Shown here piece after piece: positions 8,479 through 58,871 of a stretch of DNA of 64,000 nucleotides. Source of the DNA: Alphaproteobacteria bacterium (GTDB lineage: Bacteria > Pseudomonadota > Alphaproteobacteria > JAUHZY01); the NCBI GenBank assembly GCA_030425825.1, contig JAUHZY010000001.1, positions 512,551-576,550 of the forward strand. The letters run 5' to 3'. The translations under genes and the position numbers were made by a program. Under the pieces are notes generated by a model. The model was not told where the DNA came from, ran no database searches, and was given only the letters and a program-made list of their open reading frames with translations. Position 1 is the first letter of the stretch. Each line of letters begins with the position of its first letter.

Positions 8479-8511
8479 ATACAGAAGGATTTTTACAAAA
8501 AAGGGGGTTTA

Positions 8512-9459: not shown

Positions 9460-9468
9460 AGTCTGGCT

Positions 9469-9681
9469 TTATAAAAGCTCATCATCGTTTTGTGGTAAAA
9501 AGTGATCGATATATTGCTGGGCATGCTCTAAGTCAACAGCGCGATCGCTAATAACATACGCATATTTTTCAGCTTTTTCTTCGATCATTTCAGCGGCCAA
9601 ATTCGGATATTTTTTCTCAAGCCTTTTATGAACTTGTACATAAAGACGTAGCTTTTCTTTTGTCGTCATTCTCTGCTGCAT
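9469..9681 (-). CDS. small hypothetical protein (70 aa)
   Basis: ORF only. Confidence 0.3.
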   Translation of the reverse strand: MQQRMTTKEKLRLYVQVHKRLEKKYPNLAAEMIEEKAEKYAYVISDRAVDLEHAQQYIDHFLPQNDDELL

Positions 9682-10038
9682 ATACTTTCCTTCCCTTAAA
9701 CCATTCCAATAATTTGGAATAATTTACACATAACAAGTCCCCAAACTGCGCTAACAATAAGGGTTGCAAAAGATAAAATGTTTTGATGTGTTTTTGAGGT
9801 TTTCGTCGAACTCGGAGGTTCGTCTTCCTCGGCCCTGCAGGATGTTATCGTCGAATCTTTTGTCGAAACCTGCTCAGGTGGCGATATTATAGACATAATA
9901 TATACTCCCTCTTCATATATTATATCCTAAAAAGATACAAATTGTCAATTTGTACAACTTTGTTGTTGATGTGAAGATATTTTTAGGGTATAAAGCGCGC
10001 AAAATAATATTATTTAGGTACATAAGGGCATTAAAGGC

Positions 10039-11241: not shown

Positions 11242-11333
11242 AGTTTTCCAATATAAAAAATAAGTTGACAGCTTTTGTGTTTTGATCTAAAAAGGATACA
11301 AATAAGAATCATCAAAATAAATCAGGGCTGGGA

Positions 11334-11603
11334 ATGACACTAGAAATGACAAGGCAATCTGACGTAAATCAATTTTTCTCTAATATTGGTATGGGAACAC
11401 GACAGGATGGTTTTGATAAGCCTTTAGTCGACCATATGATGGATGTCGTTGGCGGTTTTTTTGCAGATGATCAAGCACAAAAAGCACAAATTCAACTGGC
11501 ACAAAATGACAATAAACCTGCAATTTTTGAAGAGCTGTCACAAACAAGAAAGCAGACAGCAGGATCAGAATTTTTTAACACAAATATAAAGTCTAACGGA
11601 TAA
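11334..11603 (+). CDS. small hypothetical protein (89 aa)
   Basis: ORF within the co-directional cluster. Confidence 0.35.
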   Translation: MTLEMTRQSDVNQFFSNIGMGTRQDGFDKPLVDHMMDVVGGFFADDQAQKAQIQLAQNDNKPAIFEELSQTRKQTAGSEFFNTNIKSNG

Positions 11604-11615
11604 AGGAAATAAAAA

Positions 11616-21756: not shown

Positions 21757-23238
21757 TTATGACCTGCCCCCAAACAAGATATCAATCAAGTTCTGTATTG
21801 ATCGGTTTGAGTTCGTCATTGAGAAAATGCTCAATTGCTCACGTGTCTCAAGAGCCAATCTATTCGCAGATTCTTCTTCTAAATCTGCCAGCGTCAGTTT
21901 ATCGCCTGCTTCTTCATGCGTGTTGATCAGATCTTCTGTGAACTCAAGGCGGGTTTGTAATAATGCAAAGTCTGTTGCAAAGCTGGCAGCAGTGCTGTCA
22001 ATCCTATTCAGGGCAGCGTCAAGTCCATCAAGTGTGGCGTCTAAACCTGCGGAAGAAAAATCAACACCCACAATCCCTAATGAGAAAGTTCGCATATCAA
22101 CAGAGTGAATTGTGTGTGTTGTGTTGTCACTAAAATCAACGATCAGATCTTCTGCATACTCACCTGCTGTCGGCGCATCTGTGTTGGCCCAGAAATCAGA
22201 TAAGTTTGCATTTTGAATCGTGCCATCATTTCCATTTCCTGAGCTGTCATATGCTGTCGTACCATTTCCTTCGTCTAATGGCCAATAACCTTCTAGGCTG
22301 GATCCTGGAATAGCGCCACTGGTGTAAAGTGTTGCGACTTCTGATGGTGTAAGCGCTTCATTCCAGAGGCCTGTATTGGACATAGACCCCTCAAAAAATG
22401 GCCCGCCTGGCTTCAAGGCACCAATTGTCATATCAACAGTGGGATTGTGCATTGATGTAATGGGGTCATCGTCGTTCATAACAACAGCAGCCTCTGCGCC
22501 ATCAACATACAATCTTAAGTCACCATTATCCCAAGTGAAGCCTACATGGTGCCAATTGCCGTCATTAATAGGAACGGTTGTCTCATAGTTCTTGCTTGTT
22601 CCATAAGTGCCATCACCACTAATCAAGACATTAAGCTCACCAGATGCTGTCAGGCCTAGATAAAATCCTCTTTGATTTCCACCTTGTTCATAATGGCCTG
22701 TCATATATGATGATGTGTCTGTTGTTTGTACCCAAGTAAAGTTTGATAAATCGGTTAAGCTATGGCCAATATCTCCAACGTTTATGTGATCATTTACTCC
22801 ATCAAATGTTGCGACAAAATCTTCTTCAACAAGTAAGTTTGTGCCGTTCATATGCGTATCAGCAATAAGGTTGTTATACTCACCCAGTAGTTTATTAGCT
22901 TGCGCTTCTAGGATGGTTCTCTGTGCTGCAGATGCATTGCGCGCTTCTTCAGCCAGACCCTTGACCTGCTCAATGATGGCGCGACCACTGGTCAGGCCAT
23001 GCTGCGTTGCTTTCAACGTACTGATCGCTTGATCAATATCGTCTTTGCGTTTCAGTAGGCTATCCGCCTTGTCATAAAGGCCCTTCGCTTTGAAGTACTC
23101 AACAGGACCGTCCAGAATGTCGTTGACCTTCTTACCTGTCGCCAGGCGCTTCTCAACAGTCGCTGTCAGATCCTTGATCTGTTGATGGTTCAACAAGCTG
23201 TTTCTCATCGCGGAAGTGAGCTTAATGTCATTGATCAT
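21757..23238 (-). CDS. fliC: flagellin with a LamG_3 module replacing the hypervariable domain
   Basis: Start MINDIKLTSAMRNSLLNHQQ preceded by a GGAGGTGGG RBS. The ORF-track start at 23292 lacks an RBS. Flagellin N and C termini (LTLADLEEESANRLALETREQLSI). The insert FDGVNDHINVGD...LYVDGAEA...LEGYWPLDEGNGTTAYDSSGNGNDGT is homologous to the first LamG module of the RTX protein. Confidence 0.8.
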   Translation of the reverse strand: MINDIKLTSAMRNSLLNHQQIKDLTATVEKRLATGKKVNDILDGPVEYFKAKGLYDKADSLLKRKDDIDQAISTLKATQHGLTSGRAIIEQVKGLAEEARNASAAQRTILEAQANKLLGEYNNLIADTHMNGTNLLVEEDFVATFDGVNDHINVGDIGHSLTDLSNFTWVQTTDTSSYMTGHYEQGGNQRGFYLGLTASGELNVLISGDGTYGTSKNYETTVPINDGNWHHVGFTWDNGDLRLYVDGAEAAVVMNDDDPITSMHNPTVDMTIGALKPGGPFFEGSMSNTGLWNEALTPSEVATLYTSGAIPGSSLEGYWPLDEGNGTTAYDSSGNGNDGTIQNANLSDFWANTDAPTAGEYAEDLIVDFSDNTTHTIHSVDMRTFSLGIVGVDFSSAGLDATLDGLDAALNRIDSTAASFATDFALLQTRLEFTEDLINTHEEAGDKLTLADLEEESANRLALETREQLSIFSMTNSNRSIQNLIDILFGGRS

Positions 23239-23470
23239 GACCCACCTCCATATGCTAGAGCAACATCTCGCGATGAGCTTATGATACGCCACGCGCTACG
23301 CGCTTCGGCTATGAGGGCGGAAGTGAGCTTAATGTCATTGATCATGACCCACCTCCATACGTTAGAGCAACATCTCGCGATGAGATGATGATACGCCACG
23401 CGCTACGCGCTTCGGCTATGAGGGCGGAAGTGAGTTTAATGTCATTGATCATGACCCACCTCCATATGTT
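23205..23470. repeat. tandem direct repeat of about 107 bp x3 (about 2.5 copies), spanning the fliC2 RBS, start codon and first 8 codons
   Basis: gcggaagtgagcttaatgtcattgatcatgacccacctccatatg...cgcttcggctatgagg recurs starting at 23211, 23318 and 23424 with a few substitutions. Confidence 0.85.
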
Positions 23471-23811: not shown

Positions 23812-24519
23812 TTATAGATAGCTGAATTGGGCGATAATACGTCCTTTGACCTGAATATTTTCAGGTGTACAGCAGTAATCTTCATAATTTGGGTTGTTGC
23901 AAGAAACCTTAAGGGTGCTAGATGATTGGTTTGTTAGAAGTTCTAGGCGCTTTATACGATAACCAACATCATCCCAAACAAGAAAAAAACCAGGAGGGCT
24001 GGGCTGGCAGTTAAGCGTATCAACCAACACCTTTGTACCCAAGGGAAGCTGAGGCGACATGCCGTCATCTCGGACTGTCATCATAAATAAGTACTTTAGG
24101 CTTGTCTTCGTTCTATTTTCAATAAAGTTAAGAGGAAGTTGCCAGTGGTTCACAGCATTGCAAGAGGGGTCTTCTAGATCAGAAAAATCGTTGATTTCCT
24201 GGATGGTTATCATTTTCTGATAAGGGTTTTCAAAGGCAACAGCCTCTTCACGAACAGCATTGTTGTTGGCTTCAAAATAGCTGGTGCTAATATTAATGCC
24301 TGCATGATGCATGACATCTGGAATGGAGGCGTCTATAAAAGCAGCGATAGAGCCCATTTCATGTAAGCGCAATTGTCGGTTGCCTTTAAGCATTCGAGAG
24401 ACTGCAGATGGTTCTATGTTGAGGTGTTTCGCAAGGTCAGCCTGTGTTTTACCTTGGTTTTTCAGTTTTGTTTTAAACCATCTTGCGTCCATAAAAACTT
24501 CCCATGATTTGTTGCTCAT
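23812..24519 (-). CDS. cI/LexA-like repressor: N-terminal XRE HTH plus C-terminal S24 peptidase domain
   Basis: GKTQADLAKHLNIEPSAVSRMLKG (HTH). The C-terminal GMSPQLPLGTKVLVD...VGYRIKRL pattern is typical of S24 self-cleaving repressors. The start may instead be at 24492 (MDARWF). Confidence 0.7.
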   Translation of the reverse strand: MSNKSWEVFMDARWFKTKLKNQGKTQADLAKHLNIEPSAVSRMLKGNRQLRLHEMGSIAAFIDASIPDVMHHAGINISTSYFEANNNAVREEAVAFENPYQKMITIQEINDFSDLEDPSCNAVNHWQLPLNFIENRTKTSLKYLFMMTVRDDGMSPQLPLGTKVLVDTLNCQPSPPGFFLVWDDVGYRIKRLELLTNQSSSTLKVSCNNPNYEDYCCTPENIQVKGRIIAQFSYL

Positions 24520-35636: not shown

Positions 35637-36185
35637 ATGGATCCTATCACGCAAATTATCACAGATGCTTATGAAAACGTAAAAGACTTTACAACATCTT
35701 TCCGTCGCGATTTTCATCCCACAAAAAATGATAATACAAGATTTCGTAAACATGATTGGAAGCCTGAAAAGCGTGGACAAGCACTGTTGGATAAGCATGA
35801 GCGTCAAGACTTGATACAGGCGCTTGCGGAAGGTGCCAAAGAAGAAGAGATGGCAGAGCTGTATGGGTTAACTGTGCGTCAAGTAAAGAAAATGAAAAAC
35901 AATTACCGTGATGATTACAAGCGTTATAAGAAGCTGTTTGAAAAAGAGATGATCGAAGTTGAAAAACAGTCGACATGCGACCCTATTATGCTTGCCTTGC
36001 GCGCTTTAAAAGGGCGTGCATTAATGCACCCAAATGGCGCTGTTTTTCTAGATGGTAAACCGTCATGCGTTAAAGAAATGATGGCCTCAGCAAATATGGC
36101 GCTGAAGAAAGATGGCAAAGATCCCATTCCATACCCTGGTGTTCACGACCTACCAGATCACGGCGCGCCTGGGTTTAATGTATAA
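35637..36185 (+). CDS. hypothetical protein with a possible HTH (182 aa); alternative small-terminase candidate
   Basis: ELYGLTVRQVKKM HTH-like segment. Position upstream of terL. Confidence 0.4.
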   Translation: MDPITQIITDAYENVKDFTTSFRRDFHPTKNDNTRFRKHDWKPEKRGQALLDKHERQDLIQALAEGAKEEEMAELYGLTVRQVKKMKNNYRDDYKRYKKLFEKEMIEVEKQSTCDPIMLALRALKGRALMHPNGAVFLDGKPSCVKEMMASANMALKKDGKDPIPYPGVHDLPDHGAPGFNV

Positions 36186-47561: not shown

Positions 47562-47686
47562 TGGGCATCTCCTTTTTTTATTCTAAGGATTTTCCTCATT
47601 TTAACACAGGTTTAAGCAAAAGCCTAGAGGGGCAGAAAAAGACATTAAAACCAAGGCATTTTAATAAAAAACCAAGGAGAAGCCAT

Positions 47687-48481
47687 ATGCAAAACATGAT
47701 TTTTGACATTCCAGGACAACCAAGATTAACAATCCCCAAAACAAATGGCCCTGCCATTCGCCAAGCTATGGAGGCACAGCGCAAAGCAATCCAAGCGCAG
47801 AATCAGTGGAATCACTCTGATGCAGCATATGAATTTATTAAAAGGCATGAGAAGTATCGCCCTTATCCATATTTGGATACGAGAGGAAATGTGACCATAG
47901 GTGTTGGGACGATGGTGCCTGATGAATCTGTGATGATAGATACGCCGCTTGTTGATTTGCTTGGCAACCCTGTATCAAGAAAACAGCGTGGACAAGTCTT
48001 TCGTGATATAAAGGCATTGTGGCAACAAGAGAAATATAGAAACTTACAAGCGGAATATTTCCCAAATCCACATAAGGTGACTTTACCTGAGTCAGAAGCC
48101 GATCGTATCGCAAGAAAGTATATAGAAGAGGAACTGCCTCACATTAAAAATAAATTCCAAGGATTTGATACTCTGCCTGATGCTGCAAAAACAGCTATTA
48201 TCGACATGCAGTATAACTTAGGAGATGCAGGATTTCAGCGGACGGTTCCTGAGGGATCGAACAAAACGCCGTGGCCAAATTTTTATAGTGCAATTGATGC
48301 GCGTGATTTTGAAACTGCTGCCCGTGAAGCAAGTCGTAAAGGCATTGGCCTTGGGAGGAATCAAGAAACCCAGCAATTATTGATTGACGCCGCCAAAGAA
48401 TGGCAGCAACAGCAATCACAAAAGCCTGTTGCGCCAACACCAGAAGCGCAAGAGAAAGGCGGACTGTTATCTTTTTTCTAG
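47687..48481 (+). CDS. GH24 (T4-type) lysozyme-like protein, copy 1 of 3
   Basis: FIKRHEKYRPYPYLDTRGNVTIGVGTMV matches the catalytic E...D...T...TIGxG motif of phage-type lysozymes. AAGGAG RBS. The start is set at MQNMIFDIPGQ. Confidence 0.7.
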   Translation: MQNMIFDIPGQPRLTIPKTNGPAIRQAMEAQRKAIQAQNQWNHSDAAYEFIKRHEKYRPYPYLDTRGNVTIGVGTMVPDESVMIDTPLVDLLGNPVSRKQRGQVFRDIKALWQQEKYRNLQAEYFPNPHKVTLPESEADRIARKYIEEELPHIKNKFQGFDTLPDAAKTAIIDMQYNLGDAGFQRTVPEGSNKTPWPNFYSAIDARDFETAAREASRKGIGLGRNQETQQLLIDAAKEWQQQQSQKPVAPTPEAQEKGGLLSFF

Positions 48482-48955
48482 AGGTTTATGGTGATACACT
48501 GAGAAGTGCCTGTCATAAGTCGGTTGATAATCATAGCGACTTTTAAGCCTTCTTAAAGCATCACCATAATATTTCCATGATCCAGTAGAGATTGAGACTC
48601 TTTCCCAAGGTTGGCGAAAGCTCGAGATTTCTAGTCGTTTAAGAAAGCCTTCTTTTACGCTGGGTGGCAAGTCAGTATAGTCAAAATCGTCTGGAAATAT
48701 TCTATAGCACTGCAAAACCAGAACTTTTTCACCATTGTGAATAAGGTAGGGACAATTCAGGTCGAAAACTTCATATTTATTTTCATAGGTGATTTTTGTT
48801 TGTGAGACTGTCATTTTGCCACCTGCTGCAGGGCTTGGATGCCACACGCCATAAAACTCTTTATTTTTAAAAGGTTCTGTTAAAGGCGGATCGGGTGTAT
48901 CTGCATAGATACCCAGTACAATTAAACCCACAAAGAACATCAGAAAATATTTCAT
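48467..48955 (-). CDS. secreted partner protein with signal peptide (candidate immunity protein or lysozyme inhibitor), copy 1
   Basis: MKYFLMFFVGLIVLGIYADTPDPPLTEPFKNKEFYGVW is conserved in all three copies. The 3' end overlaps the lysozyme gene by 15 bp, convergently. Confidence 0.6.
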   Translation of the reverse strand: MKYFLMFFVGLIVLGIYADTPDPPLTEPFKNKEFYGVWHPSPAAGGKMTVSQTKITYENKYEVFDLNCPYLIHNGEKVLVLQCYRIFPDDFDYTDLPPSVKEGFLKRLEISSFRQPWERVSISTGSWKYYGDALRRLKSRYDYQPTYDRHFSVYHHKPLEKR

Positions 48956-49024
48956 GGATCAAGTTTAACCACAGGTTGTGATGTGTGCAATCTGTTTGTT
49001 TTATTAACCAAGGAGAGATTTTAA
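48956..49024. promoter_or_regulatory. conserved divergent intergenic spacer (family A), copy 1
   Basis: accacaggttgtga..gcaatctgtttgttttattaaccaaggagagattttaa shared with 50243-50311 and 51548-51613. Confidence 0.6.
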
Positions 49025-49786
49025 ATGAAAAATATGATTTTCGATATTCCAGGACAGGCAAGGCGTGTTATTCCTTTGTCTGATAAGCAAGCTATTATAA
49101 ACGCACAAATTGCACATAGAGAGGCAATGGATCAACAGAAAGCACAGGGCAGCTGGAAATATTTGGACCAGGTATTTGATTTTATCAAAGAACATGAAGG
49201 AGGAATTGTTCCAGCTCCATATCTTGATACAACAGGAAATGTAACAGTTGGTATTGGTCACAGAGTGCCAAATGCGCAAGCTATGACCAAGTTGCCTTTA
49301 GTAAATCCATTAGGTCACGATGTATCTGATGAAGTAAAACGACAGGCTTTTGATGCTGTGTATGGATTGCGTGAAAAACAAGAATATCACAATAAAATTG
49401 CTAAAAAGTTTCCAAGCCCATACAAGGTTCGATTACCAGATTCAGAAGCAGTACGCATTGCCAAAGAGTATATCAACAATGAATGGCCTTTGGTTCAGCA
49501 CAAGTTTAATGGTTTTGATACATATCATCCTAAAGCACAAATGGCTGTGATGGATATTCAGTATAACATCGGGAATAAAAATTTTTCTCAAGAGAAATGG
49601 CTAAAATTTTATGATGCAATGGCACGGCGAGATTATGAGTCTGCGGCCGTAGAGTCTCATCGCAAGGATGTTGGTCAAAATCGGAATGAAGAGGTGCGAA
49701 AGCTATTGCTTGAAGCAGCAGAAGAAACACGTGCGCAAACAAAGTCGCCTTCGAATGATGTTGATTTACTTGGAGAATGGTTTTGA
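49025..49786 (+). CDS. GH24 lysozyme-like protein, copy 2
   Basis: FIKEHEGGIVPAPYLDTTGNVTVGIGHRV. The N-terminal 45 aa are identical to copy 3. Confidence 0.7.
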   Translation: MKNMIFDIPGQARRVIPLSDKQAIINAQIAHREAMDQQKAQGSWKYLDQVFDFIKEHEGGIVPAPYLDTTGNVTVGIGHRVPNAQAMTKLPLVNPLGHDVSDEVKRQAFDAVYGLREKQEYHNKIAKKFPSPYKVRLPDSEAVRIAKEYINNEWPLVQHKFNGFDTYHPKAQMAVMDIQYNIGNKNFSQEKWLKFYDAMARRDYESAAVESHRKDVGQNRNEEVRKLLLEAAEETRAQTKSPSNDVDLLGEWF

Positions 49787-50242
49787 TGTTGTTGAGGTTG
49801 GGCGATAGTAATATCCTTCAAAACATTTTGAGTAGAGCATGTCTGGTTGGTAGGAAATACCAAAGAAAGCACCCGCATATGTATCGCAATAGCTGACTGA
49901 AAGGCTAACACCTTTATCTAAGTATCGAGGTTTTTTGATTGCGAGGCGAATCAATTCATACTTTGTTTCGCCGTAAGGGTATTTGACGAGGCATTTCAAA
50001 ATAACGTCTTGTTTCCCGTTATACAAAAGATAGGGACATTCTTCATATGAATCGTTCTTTTCAAATGAGATGCCTGTCTGTGTGATGGTCATTTTCCCCG
50101 CGGCAAGAACAGACGTGCTGCTTGCTTCCCACACACCATAAAACTCTTTATTTTTAAAAGGTTCTGTCAAAGGTGGATCGGGAACATCTGCGTAGATGCC
50201 CAGCACAATAAGACCAACAAAAAACATCAGAAAATACTTCAT
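49766..50242 (-). CDS. secreted partner protein, copy 2
   Basis: Same signal peptide and N-terminal 40 aa as copies 1 and 3, with a diverged C-terminal part. 21-bp convergent overlap. Confidence 0.6.
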   Translation of the reverse strand: MKYFLMFFVGLIVLGIYADVPDPPLTEPFKNKEFYGVWEASSTSVLAAGKMTITQTGISFEKNDSYEECPYLLYNGKQDVILKCLVKYPYGETKYELIRLAIKKPRYLDKGVSLSVSYCDTYAGAFFGISYQPDMLYSKCFEGYYYRPTSTTSKPFSK

Positions 50243-50311
50243 GTAATCAGCATAACCACAGGTTGTGACTTGCGCAATCTGTTTGTTTTATTAACCAAGG
50301 AGAGATTTTAA
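50243..50311. promoter_or_regulatory. conserved divergent intergenic spacer (family A), copy 2
   Basis: taatcagcataaccacaggttgtgacttgcgcaatctgtttgttttattaaccaaggagagattttaa contains the palindrome TTGCGCAA. Confidence 0.6.
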
Positions 50312-51085
50312 ATGAAAAATATGATTTTCGATATTCCAGGACAGGCAAGGCGTGTTATTCCTTTGTCTGATAAGCAAGCTATTATAAACGCACAAATTGT
50401 ACATAGAGAGGCAATGGATCAACAGAAAGCACAGAAAAACTGGAAGCATTTAGACAATACGTTTGATTTTATTAAGATTCATGAGGGAGATATTTCACAA
50501 ACACCTTACCTTGATACGACAGGCAATGTAACAATCGGTATTGGACATAAAGTAACAGATGCCGAAGCGATGGTGAAACTGCCATTGGTTAATCCGCTGG
50601 GACATGATATTTCAGATGATATGAAGCGACAGGCTTATCATGAGATTTATGAATTGCGTAATAAGCCTGAGTATAAGAATCGTGTAAATGGTTCATTTCC
50701 TAATCCTTACAAAGTAAAATTACCAGATGCAGAAGCTGTCCGTATGGCAAAAGAATACATCAATAATGAGCTGCCTTTAGTTCAAGATAAGTTTAATGAT
50801 TTTGATACTCTTCATCCCAAGGCACAAACAGCGATTATGGATATTCAGTACAATATTGGAAATAAAAATTTTTCTAAAGAGAAGTGGCCAAAGTTTTATA
50901 CGGCAATAGATCAACGTGACTATGATACCGCAGCGGCAGAATCTCATCGTAAGGATGTTGGGATAGAGCGAAATAAAGAAGTAAAAAGGTTGCTGCTTGA
51001 GGCAGCAGAAGAAATAAAGGCGGGTGCGATCGCAGCACCAACTCAAAACAATAGCACTAGTGGATTACTTGGTGAATGGTTTTGA
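50312..51085 (+). CDS. GH24 lysozyme-like protein, copy 3
   Basis: FIKIHEGDISQTPYLDTTGNVTIGIGHKV. Confidence 0.7.
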   Translation: MKNMIFDIPGQARRVIPLSDKQAIINAQIVHREAMDQQKAQKNWKHLDNTFDFIKIHEGDISQTPYLDTTGNVTIGIGHKVTDAEAMVKLPLVNPLGHDISDDMKRQAYHEIYELRNKPEYKNRVNGSFPNPYKVKLPDAEAVRMAKEYINNELPLVQDKFNDFDTLHPKAQTAIMDIQYNIGNKNFSKEKWPKFYTAIDQRDYDTAAAESHRKDVGIERNKEVKRLLLEAAEEIKAGAIAAPTQNNSTSGLLGEWF

Positions 51086-51547
51086 AGGAGGGGATGACTC
51101 TTTGTAGTAATATCCGCCACCACAATTTGAATATTTCATATATGGTTGTGAGGTAATGCCAAAAAAAGCACCGCTATATGTTTCGCAAAACCTTACATGA
51201 AGCATAATATTTTCATTTGAGTATTTTGGCCTTTCGAGAGAAAGACGTATAAGCATCAATTCTTGTGGCGCAAAGCCATCAGGATAATATGTCTTACATT
51301 GAAGGACAATATCTTGTGAACCATTATACAAAAGATAAGGGCATTTTTCGTAGGAATTGTTCTTTTCAAACGAAATCTTCGTTTGCGCAATGGTTATTTT
51401 ACCTGCGGGTCGAACCGTATTACTTATAGGTCTCCACACGCCATAAAATTCTTTATTTTTAAAAGGCTCTGTCAAAGGTGGATCGGGAACATCTGCGTAG
51501 ATGCCCAGCACAATAAGACCAACAAAAAACATCAGAAAATACTTCAT
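51065..51547 (-). CDS. secreted partner protein, copy 3
   Basis: MKYFLMFFVGLIVLGIYADVPDPPLTEPFKNKEFYGVW. Confidence 0.6.
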   Translation of the reverse strand: MKYFLMFFVGLIVLGIYADVPDPPLTEPFKNKEFYGVWRPISNTVRPAGKITIAQTKISFEKNNSYEKCPYLLYNGSQDIVLQCKTYYPDGFAPQELMLIRLSLERPKYSNENIMLHVRFCETYSGAFFGITSQPYMKYSNCGGGYYYKESSPPSKPFTK

Positions 51548-51613
51548 GTAATCAGCATAACCACAGGTTGTGACTTGCGCAATCTGTTTATTTTATTAAC
51601 CAAGGAGGAAAAA
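51548..51613. promoter_or_regulatory. conserved divergent intergenic spacer (family A), copy 3, here driving the portal gene
   Basis: Near-identical to 50243-50311 up to the RBS (aaccaaggagg). Confidence 0.6.
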
Positions 51614-53605
51614 ATGTCTAAAAATGATATCCAAACAATTTTAAAGCAAGAAATTGATCAATCGCTGTCCTATATGGGCGGAGAATTGGCACATTCGCGT
51701 AAAAAGGCGATGGAATATTACCTAAGCAAACCATTTGGCAACGAGGTTGAAGGCCGCAGCCAGGTTGTGTCTAGCGATGTTGCTGATACAATTGAATGGA
51801 TCTTGCCATCACTGCTTAAGATCTTTACATCCAGCGACAAGGTTGTGCGCTTTGACCCTGTTGGCGCAGAAGATGAGGCCGTTGCTGATCAAGCCACAGA
51901 TTACGTTAACCATATCTTTCAGAAGGATAATCCTGGTTTTGTGATTTTGTATACGTGGTTCAAAGATGCTTTGCTGCAAAAAAACGGCTTTGTGAAGTAT
52001 TATTGGCAAAAGAAAAAAGATATTTCGAAAGAAACATTTAAAGCATTAAGTGAAGATGCGTATGCACTGTTGCTTGCCGAAGTAGAGGCCAATAGCGACC
52101 TCAAAATAAAATCAAGAAAAGCAAATAAAATTAAGGAGAAAGAAGATGAATCTAATTCAAAAGATAAAGAAAGTAAAAACATTTCTGCAACATACGATGT
52201 TGTGGTTGAGCGACATATTGAAAAGAGCCGTATCTGCGTTAAAAACGTTAGCCCAGAAGAGTTTCTTATACATCCTGACGCGAAAACGATAGATGATGCT
52301 GCTTTTGTCGCACATCGCTTGGAGCGTTCGATTTCTGACCTTATCGCATCTGGTTATGATCGTAAAACAGTTGAAGCCTTAAGTGACGATGATGGCTTAC
52401 ATTTCAATGAAGAGCGTCAAGCACGACGTTTGTTCGATGACACGCCCTTGCATGAACGCAGCGATAACACACGCAAAGTCCCTGTATATGAGTGCTATAT
52501 TCGCCTTGATGAAGATGGAGATGGTATAGCAGAGCTTCGCAAAGTCACAGTTGCAGGGGCTGAACTAGAGGTTTTAGATAACGAAGAAGTTGACTTTATT
52601 CCTTTTGCTAGCCTGTCACCTGTGTTGATTCCACATCAATTCTATGGCTTATCTATCGCAGATCTTGTGATGGACTTGCAGCTCATTAAATCTACTGTGA
52701 TGCGCCAAGTGATTGATAATATGTATCTGACAAACAATAACCGTCATGTTGTCGTAGATGGACAAGTGAATCTGGATGATTTGATGACTTCACGTCCAGG
52801 TGGTGTGGTGCGTGTGAAAAACCCTGCTGCCATTCAAGCACTAAATGCGCAAAGCATGCCTGAAAAAGCTTTTGGCTTGCTGCAATATATTGATGGTGTC
52901 CGCGAAGAACGCACAGGCGTTACCAAGAATATGCAGGGCATGGATACAAATACGCTGAACAAAACAGCGAGCGGAATAAACCAAATCATGACTGCTGCAC
53001 AGCAACGGATTGAACTGATTGCGCGTGTATTTGCAGAAACAGGCGTGAAGGATTTATTCTCGAACTTGTTAAAGCTGGTTGTTAAATACCAAGATCAACC
53101 CCGCATGATTCGTCTTCGTAATGAGTGGGTGCCGATGGATGGTTCACAGTTTGACCCTGATATGGATGTCAGCGTTTCAGTTGGTTTAGGCACAGGAAAC
53201 AAAGATCAATCTTTGGCACATTTACAGAATATTTTGAACATCCAAAAAGAAGCTATTTCTGTACAAGGAGGTGTTTTTGGACCACTTGTTACTTTGGATA
53301 ATATTCATAATACACTTGCAAAAATGGTTGAAAATGCAGGCTTGAAAAATGTTGCTGAGTTCTTCCAAAAACCTAATATGGAACAGCTTATGGCGCAAGA
53401 AAATCAAAAAGGTACGGCGCCAAATCCACAGGCACAAGCCATGCTTGAGCAATTGAGGCTGGCATCAGAGAAAATCCGCATTGATGGCATGAAAGCTGAG
53501 ACAGATCGCTTGAAGGCCGAAACTGATGCGGCAATCAAAGAGCGTGAAATTCGCTTGAAAGAAGAAGCCGCACGACAAAAAACAGAAGAAGCTTCTGATG
53601 TTTAA
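51614..53605 (+). CDS. phage portal protein
   Basis: 663 aa. The start MSKNDIQTILKQE follows an AAGGAGG RBS; the ORF-track start at 51383 runs back through the partner gene and spacer. Portal-like central region and a C-terminal coiled coil. Gene order terS-like, terL, ..., portal. Confidence 0.6.
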   Translation: MSKNDIQTILKQEIDQSLSYMGGELAHSRKKAMEYYLSKPFGNEVEGRSQVVSSDVADTIEWILPSLLKIFTSSDKVVRFDPVGAEDEAVADQATDYVNHIFQKDNPGFVILYTWFKDALLQKNGFVKYYWQKKKDISKETFKALSEDAYALLLAEVEANSDLKIKSRKANKIKEKEDESNSKDKESKNISATYDVVVERHIEKSRICVKNVSPEEFLIHPDAKTIDDAAFVAHRLERSISDLIASGYDRKTVEALSDDDGLHFNEERQARRLFDDTPLHERSDNTRKVPVYECYIRLDEDGDGIAELRKVTVAGAELEVLDNEEVDFIPFASLSPVLIPHQFYGLSIADLVMDLQLIKSTVMRQVIDNMYLTNNNRHVVVDGQVNLDDLMTSRPGGVVRVKNPAAIQALNAQSMPEKAFGLLQYIDGVREERTGVTKNMQGMDTNTLNKTASGINQIMTAAQQRIELIARVFAETGVKDLFSNLLKLVVKYQDQPRMIRLRNEWVPMDGSQFDPDMDVSVSVGLGTGNKDQSLAHLQNILNIQKEAISVQGGVFGPLVTLDNIHNTLAKMVENAGLKNVAEFFQKPNMEQLMAQENQKGTAPNPQAQAMLEQLRLASEKIRIDGMKAETDRLKAETDAAIKEREIRLKEEAARQKTEEASDV

Positions 53606-54364
53606 ACAACAAGGTGTTTTTGGCAGAACACTTGAAGTAAGAACAGGAGGTCATGCTTCTGTTTCGCCTCGTACAATGGAACGTCGTGTAACAGATCCAA
53701 GTCCTGCGCTTCAAGACTTTGCCACGAAGGAGGGCAGCCAAGAGGCTGTCCCTTCTCATGACATCACCTATGTCGAAGGCGGTGCGTTGAATGATTATCC
53801 ATCACCCTCTGTTGGTGAAGGACAAAGCAGCAGCAATAGATGGAATGACTACGCCCCAGATCCCTTCGGCTGGGACAGTTTACCGGGGTCAGAACACCTC
53901 CCTTCAAAGCGTGGCTGGACATTGCCATCAGGTAGGTCCATCACAGCGCCATTCCCAGGACAAGAAGAAAGCTATTTCCGTTGGAGTGAGAATAAAATGG
54001 CACAACATCAGCGAAATATTGATGCATTAGATGCTGCCTATACTGTGTTCATGGAGGGAGAGGCACGCCAGCATGCTTCGGAACAACGAGATACAATGAG
54101 ACGCCAAGCTTTATACAACATCAATAACGGTATGGGGGCTGTGACGGCGGGTATGATATGGCACAACAAAGAAGAGAAGCAGGCCAGGTGAGTTTTTCTA
54201 GAACGACGCGTGATGTTATCAAAAGCCAAGCTTCCATGTTTGGTGCTAATAAAATACTTGGTGATTACGCAAATCCTGTGATCCAAAATTTGGGAGAGGA
54301 TATCATCAAAGACAGAATCAATCAGATAGGAGATTATCTGAGGAATCTAGGCCCAATTTACTAG
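53598..54364 (+). pseudogene. glycine-zipper toxin-like gene, deletion/frameshift derivative (two ORF fragments, 53598-54191 and 54158-54364)
   Basis: The N-terminal part matches the 56260 and 58047 proteins (TYVEGGA...WNDY.PDPFGWDSLPGSEHLPSKRGWTLPSGRSITAPFPGQEESYFRWSENK) up to GMGAVTAGMI. The C-terminal match (SQASMFGANKILG...INQIGDYLRNL) then continues in the +1 frame. The glycine-zipper segment is missing. Confidence 0.55.
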
Positions 54365-55195
54365 CTAATAAGTTTGGTCAATTTTTTGGAAAAACACTTG
54401 AATTGGCATACCTGGACGCCAGTTTCCAGCTAAACTCTTGATCTTTTCTTTCTGCTTTAAGGAAAGTCGCTGACGAGATTTTTCACGAAGAGACAAGACT
54501 TCCTTATCATTCAAAACAGACTCTTTATATTTAGGAAAAAACAAATGAGGATACAGGTCTCTTAAAAGATCGCTTTTTTGCTTATATGCTATGTCTGCAA
54601 TATCAAGAAGAAATTGTACTTTGAGTGGTTTGTGAAGACTTTTGTACTCTTTTTCATCCATAATAAAAGCGATCAGAAAGATACCGTTTAAATCGCCTTC
54701 ATCGGCGGCTTGCACAAAGTATTTTAAAGCATCTTGTGGTGTTTCACTTTCATATAAAAAGAATAGCCCAAGGTCAATCAAAGCACCGCCATCCTTTTTC
54801 TCTGCTGCCTTCTGTGTCCATTTCCATGCTTGTTTTGGGTCTTGCTTGACGGCAATGCCTTCGCTGTAAAAACGACTTATCTTATTCATGGCTTCTGGAT
54901 CACCTGATCTTGCGGCTTCTTGATATAGTGCGAAAGCCTTGGCAGGATTCTTTGCAACGCCCAAGCCATGTTCCCAAATAAGACCCTCTAATGTCTGAAA
55001 ACGTGGATGATCAGCAGAAGATGCCAGTACAAGCACCTGGTCATATTGTTTGTTATCAAAAGCAGTGAGTGCATTATCCCACAGCTGTTGGTCAATGGGC
55101 TGATCATAAGGGCTTGATTGATGAGAGGTATAAAACACACCTGCCGCAACAAGACATAAAACAAAAACAAAGGGGAAGAGAAGTTTCTTTTTCAT
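54365..55195 (-). CDS. Sel1-repeat protein with signal peptide, copy 1
   Basis: MKKKLLFPFVFVLCLVAAGV signal. Sel1-like repeats LEGLIWEHGLGVAKNPAKAFALYQEAARSGDPEAMNKISRFYSEGIAVKQDPKQAWKWTQKAAE. Confidence 0.7.
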   Translation of the reverse strand: MKKKLLFPFVFVLCLVAAGVFYTSHQSSPYDQPIDQQLWDNALTAFDNKQYDQVLVLASSADHPRFQTLEGLIWEHGLGVAKNPAKAFALYQEAARSGDPEAMNKISRFYSEGIAVKQDPKQAWKWTQKAAEKKDGGALIDLGLFFLYESETPQDALKYFVQAADEGDLNGIFLIAFIMDEKEYKSLHKPLKVQFLLDIADIAYKQKSDLLRDLYPHLFFPKYKESVLNDKEVLSLREKSRQRLSLKQKEKIKSLAGNWRPGMPIQVFFQKIDQTY

Positions 55196-55401: not shown

Positions 55402-56199
55402 TTATTGGATGGCGGCTGGGATTCTTATAAATGTTCCAGGACGCCATCTTTGAGCTTTATATCTTAAATCGGCAAGCTCTTTATCATTTAGATATTTGGG
55501 CAGGCTCTTTTCCAGCATTTTATAGTTTTTGTTTCTTCTTTCTTTATAAGGCGCAGGAAAAAAATACGAGCGGTCTGGTCCAAATCCAGATACATCTGTA
55601 AAGGCATTATTTACCTTGAGAATGTAGTATAAATAGGCACTGCGTTTGTAATCTTGAGATTCAAATGCATCGATGGCCTCTTCAAGTAGCATTGTCGAGT
55701 TGCCTGAATAAGCAGATCTTTGACGATAGTTATTGTATTTTTCACTTCTTTTGGGAACTGTTAATGTTAAATAAAAGTACTTGTCTGCGAAGGATAAAGT
55801 TTTTGATTTCTCAAGCCAATGGATAAGCTGGGTATCTGAAAGAAGAGGGGTGTTATCAAGCATATAAGCGATAACAATAAAAAGCGCATTTTCATCGCCT
55901 TCATCGGCACTCTTTTTTAAATTCTCGATATTTTGGCCTGTTAAATCATGCGTTTTTTTTATCCATTTCTGCATTTCAATACTGTCAGGTGAAATGTTTT
56001 TGTGCTTTAAATATCCAACGACTTTCCAGGCAGCATAAACATCCCCTGATTGCGCCTGCTCTTTAAGTTGTTTCAAGTTTTTTTGGTAAGAGTACCATGG
56101 AAGAATATGGCTAAAGGTCACAAAGAAAACAATGCAAAGAATAATGCCGCGCAATCTTACTCTGGTTGGGGGTTGAAGTGGGTTCTGATATTTTTTCAT
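55402..56199 (-). CDS. Sel1/TPR-like repeat protein, divergent family member
   Basis: N-terminal TM/signal. Helical repeat composition. The C-terminal RWRPGTFI resembles the NWRPG and DWRIG tails of the other copies. Confidence 0.55.
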   Translation of the reverse strand: MKKYQNPLQPPTRVRLRGIILCIVFFVTFSHILPWYSYQKNLKQLKEQAQSGDVYAAWKVVGYLKHKNISPDSIEMQKWIKKTHDLTGQNIENLKKSADEGDENALFIVIAYMLDNTPLLSDTQLIHWLEKSKTLSFADKYFYLTLTVPKRSEKYNNYRQRSAYSGNSTMLLEEAIDAFESQDYKRSAYLYYILKVNNAFTDVSGFGPDRSYFFPAPYKERRNKNYKMLEKSLPKYLNDKELADLRYKAQRWRPGTFIRIPAAIQ

Positions 56200-56259
56200 A
56201 AAGCAACTTTAACAACCAGTAATTGAAAAAACTATCTTTTATTTTAAGGAGGAACACCC
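56200..56259. promoter_or_regulatory. conserved divergent intergenic spacer (family B), copy 2
   Basis: ataaagcaactttaacaaccagtaattgaaaaaactatcttttattttaaggaggaacaccc. Confidence 0.6.
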
Positions 56260-57147
56260 ATGAACAATGACGAGACCACCTATGTCGAAGGCGGCGCGGT
56301 ACAAAGCAGCAACAATAGCTGGAACGACTATGACCCAGATCCTTTCGGCTGGGACAGTCTGCCAGGGTCAGAACATTTACCCTCAAAGCGTGGCTGGACA
56401 TTGCCGTCAGGTAGGTCCATCACAGCACCATTCCCAGGCCAAGAAGAAAGCTATTTCCGTTGGAGTGAGAATAAGATGGCACAACATCAGCGAAATATTG
56501 ATGCATTAGATGCTGCCTATACTGTGTTCATGGAGGGAAGTCATACACAAATAGATCGTGTCAGAAGCTTACAAGGCTCATATCCACCTGCCCATATTAA
56601 CGCACCTCTTTTTGGGAAGATGCGTCAATATGTTCCGCAACAACCCAGGACTTTAACGCCAGAACAGCAAAGTGCAATGAGACGCCAAGCTTTATACAAC
56701 ATCAATAACGGTATGAGTGCTGTGACGGCGGGTATGATTGGGATGAGTCGTGGTGCGTCTTTGGGTGTTCCTGGCATGGTCGCGGGTGGATTGTTTGGGG
56801 CTTTTAACGGTTATCAGGCGAGTCATGCAATTCAAAACAATCCCATAAATGCTTTAGATTTGGCAAGTCGATACGTCCCAATAGGAAAGGCGGTTGATAT
56901 AGGAAAAGATCTAAGTATTAGTGCTTTTAATCAATATCGCGAAAATGGTCATATAGATGCGTCTCAAGTTTTACGAGATACGGCTGTCAATCAAACTGTG
57001 GGAAGGGGAGTCAAAAGTATTCTGGGAGATAATTTGTCGCCAATTTCTGCGCTTGGAACAGAGAATATTTTGGGAGACCGTATCAATCGTGGTCTTAAAA
57101 AAATAGATGAGTATCTTTACCAAAAAGGGTATATCACTGGATATTAG
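56260..57147 (+). CDS. glycine-zipper membrane toxin-like protein, copy A (295 aa)
   Basis: AAGGAGG RBS. W/P-rich N-terminal domain. Glycine zipper GMSAVTAGMIGMSRGASLGVPGMVAGGLFGAFNG. Variable C-terminus. Confidence 0.6.
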   Translation: MNNDETTYVEGGAVQSSNNSWNDYDPDPFGWDSLPGSEHLPSKRGWTLPSGRSITAPFPGQEESYFRWSENKMAQHQRNIDALDAAYTVFMEGSHTQIDRVRSLQGSYPPAHINAPLFGKMRQYVPQQPRTLTPEQQSAMRRQALYNINNGMSAVTAGMIGMSRGASLGVPGMVAGGLFGAFNGYQASHAIQNNPINALDLASRYVPIGKAVDIGKDLSISAFNQYRENGHIDASQVLRDTAVNQTVGRGVKSILGDNLSPISALGTENILGDRINRGLKKIDEYLYQKGYITGY

Positions 57148-57986
57148 TATTGAAGGTTCATTGCCTTAAACTCTTTTTCAAACCCTGAGCCAATCTTCCA
57201 GTTTTCGGCGAGACGTTTTATTTGTTCTTTTTGTTGAGTTGTAAGCTTTTTGTCTAACTCTTTTTTTAATTGATGCAATTCAGGAAATGAGCTTGAAGAG
57301 AATCCTTTTTCAATATTAAAAAACAAATCTGGATAACGTTCACGCAGCAGAAAAACGCCTCTTTTTCCTTGAACAGAATCACTTAAATGAAGAAAAAAGA
57401 AGCGAACCAAATCAATTTGTGGATAGTCTTGGAAAGCACCATAATAAAATGCTAAAGCCCCGAAAGCAGCGGCACTTCCCATTTGCGCAGCTGCGGATAT
57501 TTTTTTATTTGCGTAAACAAGATGATCTTCACGTTCTTTATTTTTTATATGGTAATAGCCTATCATAAAAAGCGCGGAATAATCCTTTTTCTCTGCTGCC
57601 TTCTGTGTCCATTTCCATGCTTGTTTTGGGTCTTGTTTGACGGCAATGCCTTCGCTGTAAAAACGACTTATCTTATTCATGGCTTCTGGATCACCTGCCT
57701 TTGCGGCTTCGTGATATAATGTGAAAGCCTTGGCAGGATTCTTTGCAACGCCCAGGCCATGCTCCCAAATAAGACCCTCTAATGTCTGAAAACGTGGATG
57801 ATCAGCAGAAGATGCCAGCACAAGCACCTGGTCATATTGTTTGTTATCAAAAGCAGTGAGTGCATTATCCCACAGCTGTTGGTCAATGGGCTGATCATAA
57901 GGGGTTGATTGATGAGAGGTATAAAACACACCTGCCGCAACAAGGCATAAAACAAAAACAAAGGGGAAGAGACGTTTCTTTTTCAT
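57144..57986 (-). CDS. Sel1-repeat protein with signal peptide, copy 3
   Basis: The N-terminal 150 aa are near-identical to copy 1 and the C-terminus is diverged. 4-bp convergent overlap with the toxin gene. Confidence 0.7.
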   Translation of the reverse strand: MKKKRLFPFVFVLCLVAAGVFYTSHQSTPYDQPIDQQLWDNALTAFDNKQYDQVLVLASSADHPRFQTLEGLIWEHGLGVAKNPAKAFTLYHEAAKAGDPEAMNKISRFYSEGIAVKQDPKQAWKWTQKAAEKKDYSALFMIGYYHIKNKEREDHLVYANKKISAAAQMGSAAAFGALAFYYGAFQDYPQIDLVRFFFLHLSDSVQGKRGVFLLRERYPDLFFNIEKGFSSSSFPELHQLKKELDKKLTTQQKEQIKRLAENWKIGSGFEKEFKAMNLQY

Positions 57987-58046
57987 AAAGCAACTTTAAC
58001 AACCAGTAATTGAAAAAACTATCTTTTATTTTAAGGAGGAACACCC
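57987..58046. promoter_or_regulatory. conserved divergent intergenic spacer (family B), copy 3
   Basis: Identical to 56200-56259. Confidence 0.6.
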
Positions 58047-58871
58047 ATGAACAATGACGAGACCACCTATGTTGAGGGCGGCGCGGTACAAAGCAGCAAC
58101 AATAGCTGGAACGACTATGATCCAGATCCTTTTGGTTGGGACAATTTACCGGGTTCAGAATACCTGCCTTCAAAGCGCGGCATGTCATTGCCATCGGGCC
58201 GGTCAATCACGGCACCATTTCCTGGACAAGAAGAAAGTTATTTTAAATGGTCAGAGAGCAAGATAGCTGAACATCAACACAATATTGAAGCGTTGGACTC
58301 TGCTTACTCAGGCTTTGTTGAAGGCGTACAAAGTCTAGTACCGCAGTCACAGACCCTAACACCACAACAACAGAGATTGATACGTCAGCAAGCCATGTAC
58401 AATATCAATAATGGTATGGGGGCGGTGACAGGTGCGATGTTTGGCGCTAGTCGTGGTGCTCCGCTGGGGGTGCCTGGCATGGTTGCTGGCGGATTACTTG
58501 GTGCAGGGGCAGGGTATTTACAAACTCAACATATCCAGCAAAATATACCAGAAATCATGCAAGATGTGCAGCAGCCAGAGAATATTGCAGGAGCCGCCAT
58601 ATCATTATTGCCGCAAGCAAGAGGGACCGCACATATTTCTCGAGCAGCTTGGGATGCGGCAGCTAGTTTTTCTCGTCAGAAGAGAGAAAACAATTTAAGT
58701 TTCACAAAAACTGCAAGGAATATTATTGAGGGACAAGCATCAATGTTTGGCGTCAACAAAATTCTTGGTGGCGCTGCTAATCCTGTAGTTCAAAACTTTG
58801 GAGAAGCTGCAATCAGGGAAAGGATAAATCAGATCGGAGAATATCTAAGAGTCTTAAAATCAAGATATTGA
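58047..58871 (+). CDS. glycine-zipper membrane toxin-like protein, copy B (274 aa)
   Basis: GMGAVTGAMFGASRGAPLGVPGMVAGGLLGAGAGY. The N-terminal 90 aa are conserved with copy A. Confidence 0.6.
   Translation: MNNDETTYVEGGAVQSSNNSWNDYDPDPFGWDNLPGSEYLPSKRGMSLPSGRSITAPFPGQEESYFKWSESKIAEHQHNIEALDSAYSGFVEGVQSLVPQSQTLTPQQQRLIRQQAMYNINNGMGAVTGAMFGASRGAPLGVPGMVAGGLLGAGAGYLQTQHIQQNIPEIMQDVQQPENIAGAAISLLPQARGTAHISRAAWDAAASFSRQKRENNLSFTKTARNIIEGQASMFGVNKILGGAANPVVQNFGEAAIRERINQIGEYLRVLKSRY

Follow-up and report, generated by a model that had tools for sequence, protein, structure and literature searches.

Polymorphic toxin–immunity arrays and the hyperplastic regions of phages are built of tandem, diverged cassettes, whose conserved ends and junctions are substrates for recombination. 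In the pesticin/Pim system of Yersinia pestis pPCP1, a muramidase toxin of the T4-lysozyme fold, devoid of a signal peptide, goes with a small periplasmic immunity protein specific to this enzyme; indeed, Pim resides in the periplasm and is specific to pesticin, not to T4 lysozyme (T4L) (PMC3390615). The pim (+) and pst (−) genes are convergent and lie 34 nucleotides (nt) apart. Bacteriophage T4 encodes Spackle, a periplasmic protein that is a stoichiometric inhibitor of the incoming GH24 lysozyme gp5 (PMC7677548). Muramidase effectors of type VI secretion systems (T6SS), such as the Tge/Tgi pairs, the pesticin-domain pair TssI2/TsiI2, and VgrG3cp, are described as periplasm-acting lysozyme-like toxins with an adjacent signal-peptide immunity gene, polymorphic and found in arrays with orphan immunity genes (PMC9620997, PMC9927483, PMC9796082); a lysozyme-like T6SS effector of Pantoea has a DUF1311/LprI immunity protein (PMC12135965). 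We analyzed here a stretch of 64,000 nt from an Alphaproteobacteria bacterium (assembly GCA_030425825.1, contig JAUHZY010000001.1, positions 512,551 to 576,550), hereafter “the window”, in which three tandem units precede the portal gene of an SU10-type podophage, each made of a plus-strand GH24-type lysozyme gene (lys1 to lys3) and a minus-strand gene encoding a signal-peptide protein, its “partner” (par1 to par3).

In our view, each unit is probably a cognate pair of a GH24 muramidase and a periplasmic inhibitor, i.e., its immunity protein. We document below the anatomy of the genes, the catalytic residues of the enzymes, the selection acting on both families, their linkage at three loci, and tracts of gene conversion between the copies. 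The window pairs are convergent, as in pesticin/Pim, and they share with gp5/Spackle a setting of phage structural genes. Unlike pPCP1, the window holds three diverged tandem pairs, with 3′ overlaps, adjoining a phage portal gene. Since the searches reported below place the window proteins in none of the pesticin/Pim, Spackle, and T6SS families, the resemblance is one of functional analogy and not of membership. MliC/PliC, Ivy, PliG/PliI, Neisseria ACP, and LprI differ in acting on host lysozymes of the c, g, or i type, whose genes do not adjoin theirs. What is new here is the partner family, in an unusual genetic layout and in the setting of a prophage remnant; the kind of system is already known.

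Gene Organization of the Three Units

An earlier note on this DNA, made from the letters alone, had described three tandem units of a plus-strand GH24 lysozyme gene and a minus-strand signal-peptide gene, with convergent 3′ overlaps of 15-21 bp and a near-identical spacer between the units and before the portal gene. All of these are present, as follows (sizes in amino acids, aa).

47687-48481, plus strand: lys1, 264 aa, GH24-type lysozyme, the most diverged copy, with AAGGAG 7 nt 5′ of its ATG
48467-48955, minus strand: par1, 162 aa, signal-peptide partner, which matches the partner homologues of locus L013 (see below)
48956-49024: spacer S1, 69 nt; it contains a T-run, an inverted repeat (48971-48995), and AAGGAG as the ribosome-binding site for lys2
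49025-49786, plus strand: lys2, 253 aa, GH24-type lysozyme, 72% identical to lys3
49766-50242, minus strand: par2, 158 aa, signal-peptide partner, 4 Cys
50243-50311: spacer S2, 69 nt, with an inverted repeat (50258-50282)
50312-51085, plus strand: lys3, 257 aa, GH24-type lysozyme
51065-51547, minus strand: par3, 160 aa, signal-peptide partner, 4 Cys
51548-51613: spacer S3, 66 nt, with an inverted repeat (51563-51587), directly abutting the portal gene

The overlaps measure 15 nt for lys1/par1 and 21 nt for both lys2/par2 and lys3/par3. AAGGAG is found 7-9 nt ahead of the ATG in every plus-strand gene of the units. In the NCBI annotation, the partner starts at Met6, giving 155 aa.

Two statements of the earlier note on the N-termini have to be narrowed. 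The 45-aa extension said to be identical in the lysozymes is so in lys2 and lys3 only, with one difference up to residue 41; lys1 agrees with lys2/lys3 at about half of the positions aligned in this stretch, the invariant part being M-x-NMIFDIPGQ and scattered residues. The identical 40-aa N-terminus of the partners comes down to the first 38 residues, position 20 excepted.

Identity of the Lysozymes

The plus-strand proteins are, judging by their sequence, GH24 muramidases with intact catalytic residues and a predicted muramidase activity. With a gathering cut-off of 22.3 bits, the Pfam family PF00959 (Phage_lysozyme) recognizes lys2 (25.5 bits) and lys3 (29.5 bits), lys1 staying below it (20.0 bits), and the PHROG 7 endolysin family matches all three (E = 7e-13 for lys1, 1.5e-5 for lys2, and 7e-10 for lys3). 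In a PDB-wide profile search with the three lysozymes, all the chains retrieved bear the name of lysozyme or of a T4-lysozyme fusion construct. The catalytic Glu/Asp/Thr motif pointed out in the earlier note withstood accurate alignment: lys1, lys2, and lys3 all have HE..YLD(T)xGNVT, the Glu of H-E-G, the Asp of Y-L-D, and the Thr of N-V-T align with E11, D20, and T26 of T4L in a hidden Markov model (HMM) alignment, and the triad is intact in every copy. These residues (E58, D68, and T74) are invariant in five homologues, from the window and from L013.

Structure prediction was less informative. The AlphaFold2 model of the lysozyme is poor, with a mean predicted local distance difference test (pLDDT) of 56.6 and values >70 in the C-lobe only; with this model, Foldseek found nothing at E ≤ 0.001, and the top matches (all E ≥ 1.6e-3, template modeling (TM) scores of 0.3-0.46) were mostly T4L, gp5 lysozyme, and pesticin, the best ranks going to Spackle–lysozyme complexes. 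The Pesticin family (PF16754) scored 18.2 and 21.3 bits, the latter for lys3, below its cut-off of 25.8 bits, and hhalign of the lysozymes against pesticin (Pst) gave a probability of 1.4%.

Lys1-3 contain no Cys and no hydrophobic segment, their maximum Kyte–Doolittle (KD) hydropathy over 15 residues being ≤1.04. They thus have neither a Sec signal nor a signal-arrest-release (SAR) anchor, in line with the earlier statement that they lack a signal peptide. Only ~45 aa precede the lysozyme domain, and no domain match to a TonB box, a translocation, or a receptor-binding domain was found in this N-terminal stretch, whereas pesticin devotes ~165 aa to these three functions. Compared with T4 gp5, the window lysozymes are free-standing proteins of ~250 aa and not a domain of a tail spike, and no intact virion module goes with them. 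As a side observation, the window lysozymes end in aromatic residues (LLGEWF, LLSFF).

The Partner Proteins

The partners start with a hydrophobic segment (KD 2.59) ending in IYA|D and have 2-4 Cys. A lipobox, a transmembrane segment at the C-terminus, and a coiled coil are all lacking. Behind the cleavable-looking signal is a domain of ~140 aa, predicted to be beta-rich or all-beta. The mature partner is probably a Cys-containing protein of ~140 aa, which may fold into an eight-stranded calycin-like barrel.

The earlier note had proposed to look for the partners among the Ivy, MliC/PliC, or Tsi families; neither Pfam nor PDB-wide profile searches gave a sequence match to any of these. Membership in the LprI, PliG, PliI, Spackle, or Tgi families was likewise ruled out for want of a profile or sequence match. 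The motifs typical of MliC seem to be missing from the partners as well. The comparison with Spackle differs on two counts, as the partner has no PDB-profile match to it and is predicted to be all-beta. The comparison with T6SS immunity differs as well: the immunity-like gene of the window lies on the strand opposite to that of the enzyme, and the sequences of the partner family are unrelated to those of T6SS immunity proteins.

Linkage of the Two Families across Loci

Searched against 5.8 billion sequences, par3 retrieved only the three window copies and lys3 only lys2 and lys3. A profile of the mature partner, run exhaustively on 1.84 billion cluster representatives, brought four real additions, P0007-P0010; P0006, a 2721-aa repeat protein that matches only partner residues 3-43, nine times, was discarded as a low-complexity artefact. 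Altogether, in ~15 billion proteins, the partner family was found at two loci besides the window, L013 and L031, and at each of them it stands beside the same lysozyme clade. An alignment of the lysozymes had no match in 185,579 reference genomes. On the viral side, a tblastn search with lys3 (E ≤ 1e-3) had none in 50,697 phage genomes, 543 of which carry a related portal; 2.9 million viral contigs yielded only four weak, partial lysozyme relatives and no partner homologue.

L013 is a 15.9-kb metagenome contig bearing P0007, P0008, P0009, P0011, and P0012. It has seven partner-family open reading frames (ORFs), the full-length ones with a lipoprotein signal L-S-[AG]-C, and two lysozyme homologues, ~30% identical, with the triad intact.

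4067-5458 of L013: lysozyme homologue, 463 aa
13450-14790 of L013: lysozyme homologue, 446 aa

Both are divergently adjacent to partner genes, and between them lie an SU10-type adaptor gene and a fibre-like gene; apart from the lysozyme and the partner, the window and L013 have no family in common. L031 is a 3.1-kb contig of an NCBI assembly, in which P0010, a tandem double-domain partner, is encoded next to a 367-aa lysozyme homologue belonging to the same clade (HMM E = 1.3e-31), the two genes being convergent and 25 nt apart. Two genes above the Pfam threshold for LprI (“Lysozyme inhibitor LprI”) adjoin the L031 pair. LprI/DUF1311 has been cited as an inhibitor of lysozyme and also as an immunity domain of T6SS (PMC12135965).

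As the partner family is found solely beside this lysozyme clade, it is probably a new periplasmic lysozyme blocker. By sequence, the pairs present what is expected of an effector and its immunity protein, with a putative toxin without an export signal beside a signal-peptide protein and a linkage kept in three independent loci. The effector/immunity or lysozyme/inhibitor array of the earlier note thus stands as the best reading, in view of the exclusive neighborhood of the partner and the LprI genes of L031; membership in a known inhibitor family found no support. Cassette number, which the earlier note had proposed to compare, varies, with three lysozyme and three partner copies in the window, two and seven in L013, and one lysozyme with one double-domain partner in L031. 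The surplus of immunity-like genes over lysozymes in L013 (7:2) is another likeness to polymorphic toxin arrays. The window differs from these arrays in that its conserved parts are short (the first ~40 codons and the spacer) and apparently recently converted, not a long trafficking domain.

One could object that the partners are unrelated secreted “moron” proteins duplicated along with the adjoining lysozyme genes and without functional coupling to them. Indeed, within the window, tandem duplication is enough to account for the joint amplification of the two genes and for their congruent divergence. It would leave to coincidence an adjacency met in three independent loci, at ~25-35% identity and with differing orientations and surrounding genes, and the lack of any partner homologue elsewhere among the ~15 billion proteins; we consider an absence of coupling very unlikely.

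Another reading is that of ordinary lysis, with triplicated prophage endolysins and partners acting as spanin, holin, or antiholin accessories. The PHROG endolysin and Pfam Phage_lysozyme matches agree with it, as does the prophage-like setting (terminase, portal, repressor, GH108 muramidase-domain protein). We nonetheless judge it highly improbable: the partners lie on the opposite strand and are ~140-aa beta-rich soluble domains without holin or spanin features, no lysis cassette needs three diverged copies or the seven partners of L013, the lysozyme clade is absent from the 50,697 phage genomes searched, and the LprI genes of L031 point to inhibition, not lysis. Membership in a phage lysis cassette was, thus, rejected on the strand and features of the partners and on the absence of a lys3 match in the phage records. 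The statement of the earlier note that this is not a single phage endolysin is upheld by the variable number of paired copies and by the linkage at three loci.

Fourteen more distant lysozyme relatives were found in metagenomes without the partner family, several of them with signal-peptide neighbors. In one metagenome contig (L028, 395-9386), lysozyme-like and signal-peptide genes alternate on the same strand, one of the lysozyme-like proteins has RTX repeats, and a 1447-aa RTX protein comes next in the row. Other features of L013 are worth recording. While the enzyme domains of its two lysozymes have diverged, their ~200-aa low-complexity C-terminal extensions are near-identical and end in ...GSFYSGW; the partner homologues alternate, at 6012-11021, with arrays of a second secreted/lipoprotein family (PF27214, “PM1083”, in precomputed Pfam annotation); the SU10-type adaptor gene (11170-11847) is isolated; and a housekeeping-looking FtsJ/RlmE methyltransferase gene is found at 3367-4050.

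Selection, Duplication, and Gene Conversion

The ratio of nonsynonymous to synonymous substitutions (dN/dS, Nei–Gojobori) is 0.12-0.26 for every pair of copies in both families, with dS saturated. Such ratios at near-saturated synonymous sites indicate real genes, kept under purifying selection since ancient duplications. At the partner N-terminus, the proportion of nonsynonymous differences (pN) between par1 and par2/par3 is 0.06 and that of synonymous differences (pS) is 0.44-0.53, so the signal peptide and the FKNKEFYGVW segment are constrained at the protein level.

Two near-identical tracts have another origin.

48990-49147 = 50277-50434: 1 mismatch in 158 nt, taking in the spacer's 3′ half and lys2/lys3 up to codon ~41
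50129-50302 = 51434-51607: 3 mismatches in 174 nt, covering the first ~38 codons of par2/par3 and the spacer

Between lys2 and lys3, pS is 0.000 in codons 1-40 and 0.68 in the remainder. The patches of near-identity cover different segments in different pairs of units and extend into coding sequence. Being pair-specific and reaching coding sequence with pS = 0, they point to patchy gene conversion and not to a uniformly constrained regulatory element. The 5′ region of lys1 (47562-47686) has only the ribosome-binding-site region in common with the spacer, which fits the duplication of a [lys-partner-spacer] unit that originally lay ahead of the portal gene. The array, therefore, probably arose by tandem duplication of this unit ahead of the SU10-type podophage portal gene; its copies then diverged for a long time under purifying selection before recent, patchy gene conversion re-homogenized the junctions.

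Spacers and Transcription

Up to the ribosome-binding site, S2 and S3 differ by one base, and S1 departs from them chiefly in the loop of the hairpin and over the initial 11 nt. A 31-nt spacer core occurs exactly three times in the 64 kb (0.00 expected), and so does the motif TTTATTAACCAAGGAG (0.02 expected). The inverted repeat, with arms of 10 bp, is present at the three spacers only within the window, and all three can form a terminator-like hairpin on the plus strand, ACAGGTTGTG-N5-YGCAATCTGT followed by a T-run.

In the earlier note, the spacer was held to contain divergent promoters, which would also drive the portal gene. We scanned for sigma-70 sites (−35 and −10 hexamers spaced by 16-18 nt, with at least 9 of 12 consensus positions): none was found on either strand of the three spacers, and the whole region has fewer promoter-like sites than its shuffled versions (9 vs. 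13.0 ± 3.4). Besides, 66-69 nt leave little room for two promoters and their leaders, and the pattern of conservation fits duplication and conversion. The antisense interplay suggested there by the convergent overlap did not find support either, as the homologous pairs are divergent in L013 and convergent without overlap in L031. Because orientation varies across loci, the conserved feature is adjacency on opposite strands.

The three occurrences of the spacer core, against none expected, could still be taken for the mark of a selected bidirectional promoter/operator serving partner(n), lys(n+1), and the portal gene, with antisense control through the 3′ overlap, an account that is compatible with the other explanations. 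The inverted repeat with its 10-bp arms, confined to the spacers within the window, might serve as an operator or as the plus-strand terminator-like hairpin. By eye, an element TTGCGC-17 nt-TATGCT (TTGCAC-17 nt-TAAACT in S1) points toward the partner gene, whose ATG is 6 nt away, and agrees with the consensus at only ~7 of 12 positions; such an element would yield a leaderless partner mRNA, fitting the absent Shine–Dalgarno sequence. We regard this promoter/operator as unlikely. Apart from the outcome of the sigma-70 scan, the folding energy of the hairpin is like that of shuffled sequences (z of −0.65 to +0.13), the spacer has no match in Rfam, the identity found at synonymous coding sites, in pair-specific tracts, indicates gene conversion, and the L013 pairs are divergently oriented.

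Two other roles for the spacer were considered and rejected: that of an operator common to further genes, the inverted repeat being found at the three spacers only, and that of a structured RNA, given the folding energy and the empty Rfam search. We also noticed two minus-strand terminator-like hairpins at 50991-51039, within the 3′ end of lys3 and just past the par3 stop. The equivalent sequence of lys2 pairs less well by eye, and, as the hairpins coincide with the stretch coding for L-L-E-A-A-E-E, they are possibly due to chance.

A Putative Muramidase–Immunity System

If each unit is a cognate pair, as we favor, the muramidase would be made in the cytoplasm without an export signal and would cleave peptidoglycan by means of its Glu/Asp/Thr residues, carrying a ~45-aa N-terminal extension specific to the family. 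The partner would be exported by the Sec pathway to the periplasm, where it would bind and block its own muramidase, and it would shield the wall of the carrier cell from an incoming muramidase of the same family. Its position on the opposite strand makes expression independent of the enzyme genes possible; the partner may be produced continuously, the muramidase genes staying under the same control as the portal (late) gene.

One has to keep in mind that a number of results weigh against this reading. The partners have no Pfam family at E ≤ 0.1, no match in NCBIfam and PADLOC, and a single match in PHROGs (E = 0.005), to a family of unknown function; their profile, searched against all PDB sequences at E ≤ 1, gave one irrelevant match only. 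Homology to Pim was ruled out, hhalign of the partner alignment against Pim of pPCP1 giving a probability of 0.1%. The partner genes have no obvious Shine–Dalgarno sequence, and the consensus scan found no promoter for them. In contrast to T6SS effectors, lys1-3 gave no match to VgrG, PAAR, WHIX, MIX, or any further trafficking domain, and the 64-kb window revealed no genes of T6SS or of another secretion system. Neither Pfam nor PHROG revealed a capsid, scaffold, adaptor, or tail gene among the larger neighboring ORFs scanned. The known loci are three only, two of them short contigs from metagenomes or metagenome-assembled genomes. Finally, we infer, and do not observe, the binding and inhibition of the muramidase by the partner, its periplasmic location, and its independent transcription.

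Should the partners indeed block the neighboring enzymes, they would form a sequence family not described so far, whose members inhibit T4-type (GH24) lysozymes in the periplasm, and the locus would offer three natural cognate pairs, i.e., a 3 × 3 specificity matrix in which to follow the evolution of inhibitor specificity. Specific GH24 inhibitors would also be of practical interest, since GH24 enzymes find use in endolysin-based antibacterials and, in structural biology, as fusion partners. More generally, the locus connects a muramidase/immunity logic with SU10-type phage structural genes, which stand isolated in two unrelated contigs, and this raises two testable questions: do prophage remnants serve as platforms for toxin–immunity cargo, and do prophages exclude their relatives by neutralizing ejection proteins?

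Genomic Setting and the SU10-Type Portal

The window is a piece of bacterial chromosome (flagellar hook, flagellins, AsmA, RTX protein, EamA) with a prophage-like stretch, which includes the following genes, along with the GH108-domain gene described below.

51614-53605, plus strand: SU10-type portal, 663 aa, full length (Pfam SU10_portal, E = 4e-224, model positions 2-591 of 593)
39339-40715, plus strand: terminase large subunit (TerL; Pfam Terminase_6N, E = 2.4e-9), 11 kb upstream of the portal gene
23812-24519, minus strand: CI/LexA-like repressor (HTH_3 and Peptidase_S24)

The portal is 41-44% identical to podophage portals. When reference genomes were scanned with the portal, the only matches were prophages at ~40% identity, from Undibacterium and others, with nothing else in common with the window. 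In phage Venkman, whose portal is 41% identical, the terminase, portal, scaffold, capsid, and tail genes are contiguous; of its structural proteins, the portal alone matches the window, whose TerL looks unrelated. An intact SU10-type prophage was, thus, rejected, the window having no contiguous terminase-portal-scaffold-capsid-adaptor-tail module, and the prophage to which the portal belongs looks decayed or rearranged.

This setting bears on the nature of the incoming muramidase, which could, with about equal odds, be a toxin used between bacteria or an ejection protein from the virions of related phages. Toward the toxin point the arrays, the surplus of immunity-like genes, the LprI neighbors, and the distant relative with RTX repeats; toward the ejection protein point the co-orientation with the portal and the common junction, the overlap of the portal stop by X1 (the first gene of a second array, described below), and the SU10-type genes found in two loci.

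The second option can be carried further, to a phage arms race. The lysozymes and the Gly-zipper X proteins of the second array would then be late, virion-packaged ejection proteins of SU10 type, opening wall and membranes, the partners would be superinfection-exclusion proteins of the prophage, and the multiple diverged copies on both sides would reflect escape and counter-escape. The lysozyme array is on the same strand as the portal gene and has a junction and a ribosome-binding site in common with it; the start of X1 overlaps the portal stop, and a CI-like repressor is present upstream. At L013, the lysozymes flank an SU10-type adaptor and a fibre-like gene and carry their near-identical ~200-aa C-terminal extensions. 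SU10 itself packages five ejection proteins, one of them credited with transglycosylase activity and peptidoglycan degradation (PMC9509320), and Spackle provides the precedent of a periplasmic inhibitor of a GH24 virion lysozyme (PMC7677548), Spackle–lysozyme complexes being also the best-ranked in Foldseek (E ≥ 1.6e-3). Against all this, lys3 has no tblastn match in the 50,697 phage genomes, including the 543 with a related portal, and 2.9 million viral contigs gave just four weak matches. Genes for a capsid, scaffold, adaptor, or tail are not detectable in the window, and the locus alone cannot build a virion; the partner, predicted to be beta-rich, is unlike Spackle. We know of no phage with three paralogous ejection lysozymes, which also counts against such an arms race. 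We consider it possible, albeit on the doubtful side.

A bolder variant, in our eyes rather improbable, would see in the three lysozymes, the portal, and the three Gly-zipper X genes the late operon of a domesticated or rearranged SU10-type podophage, with a capsid loaded with diversified ejection proteins that attack wall and membranes and with the secreted minus-strand proteins, both the putative calycin-like lysozyme blockers and the Sel1 proteins, as dedicated periplasmic antidotes; this would amount either to a two-layer arms race of ejection and anti-ejection or to a phage-derived toxin-delivery particle with kin immunity.

Further genes of the region deserve mention. The CI/LexA-like repressor gene adjoins two flagellin-like genes and may mark the edge of the prophage-like region. 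Two flagellin-N-domain proteins (20189-21649 and 21757-23292) have Laminin_G_3 inserts, and one of them has a ~200-aa segment in common, at 41% identity, with the RTX-repeat protein encoded at 389-2809. A 182-aa ORF (35637-36185, plus strand) has weak PHROG matches to a phage sigma factor/transcriptional regulator (E = 5e-4). The 11-kb interval between the TerL and portal genes, both intact, contains mostly minus-strand genes of unknown function. A gene at 42667-44730 (minus strand) encodes a 687-aa protein with an N-terminal GH108 muramidase domain (E = 1e-20), followed by ~400 aa of unknown sequence, and with several hydrophobic segments near the C-terminus; it is the second peptidoglycan-hydrolase candidate of the island.

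A Second Array Downstream of the Portal

Past the portal gene, a second set of units repeats the same layout with other families, X and Sel1-repeat proteins.

53598-54364, plus strand: X1, the first member, whose start overlaps the portal stop by 8 nt
54365-55195, minus strand: Sel1-repeat signal-peptide protein, convergent with and abutting X1
56260-57147, plus strand: X2, 295 aa
57144-57986, minus strand: Sel1-repeat signal-peptide protein, convergent with X2 (4-nt overlap)
58047-58871, plus strand: X3, 274 aa
58875-59726, minus strand: Sel1-repeat signal-peptide protein, convergent with X3

X1-X3 have in common a ~95-aa N-terminal region and a Gly-zipper-like hydrophobic segment (GASLGVPGMVAGGLFGA); they have no Pfam or PDB match, and X1, the only copy scanned, has none in PHROGs. 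The junctions 5′ of X2 and X3 (~56190-56330 and ~57977-58117) are identical, and the Sel1 partners of X have near-identical N-termini and diverged C-termini. As the same architecture is found with unrelated X/Sel1 families, the association of a plus-strand protein without export signal and an exported minus-strand partner is a property of the island.

X1 is split into two overlapping frames, 53598-54191 and 54158-54364, the one matching X2/X3 in their N-terminal part and the other in their C-terminal part; a sequencing error, a frameshift, or decay to a pseudogene could account for the split. A minus-strand gene (55402-56199) located between X/Sel1 units one and two encodes a basic protein of 265 aa with an N-terminal transmembrane or signal segment; it has no family match, and it has its start codon and upstream junction in common with the Sel1 gene at 57986.

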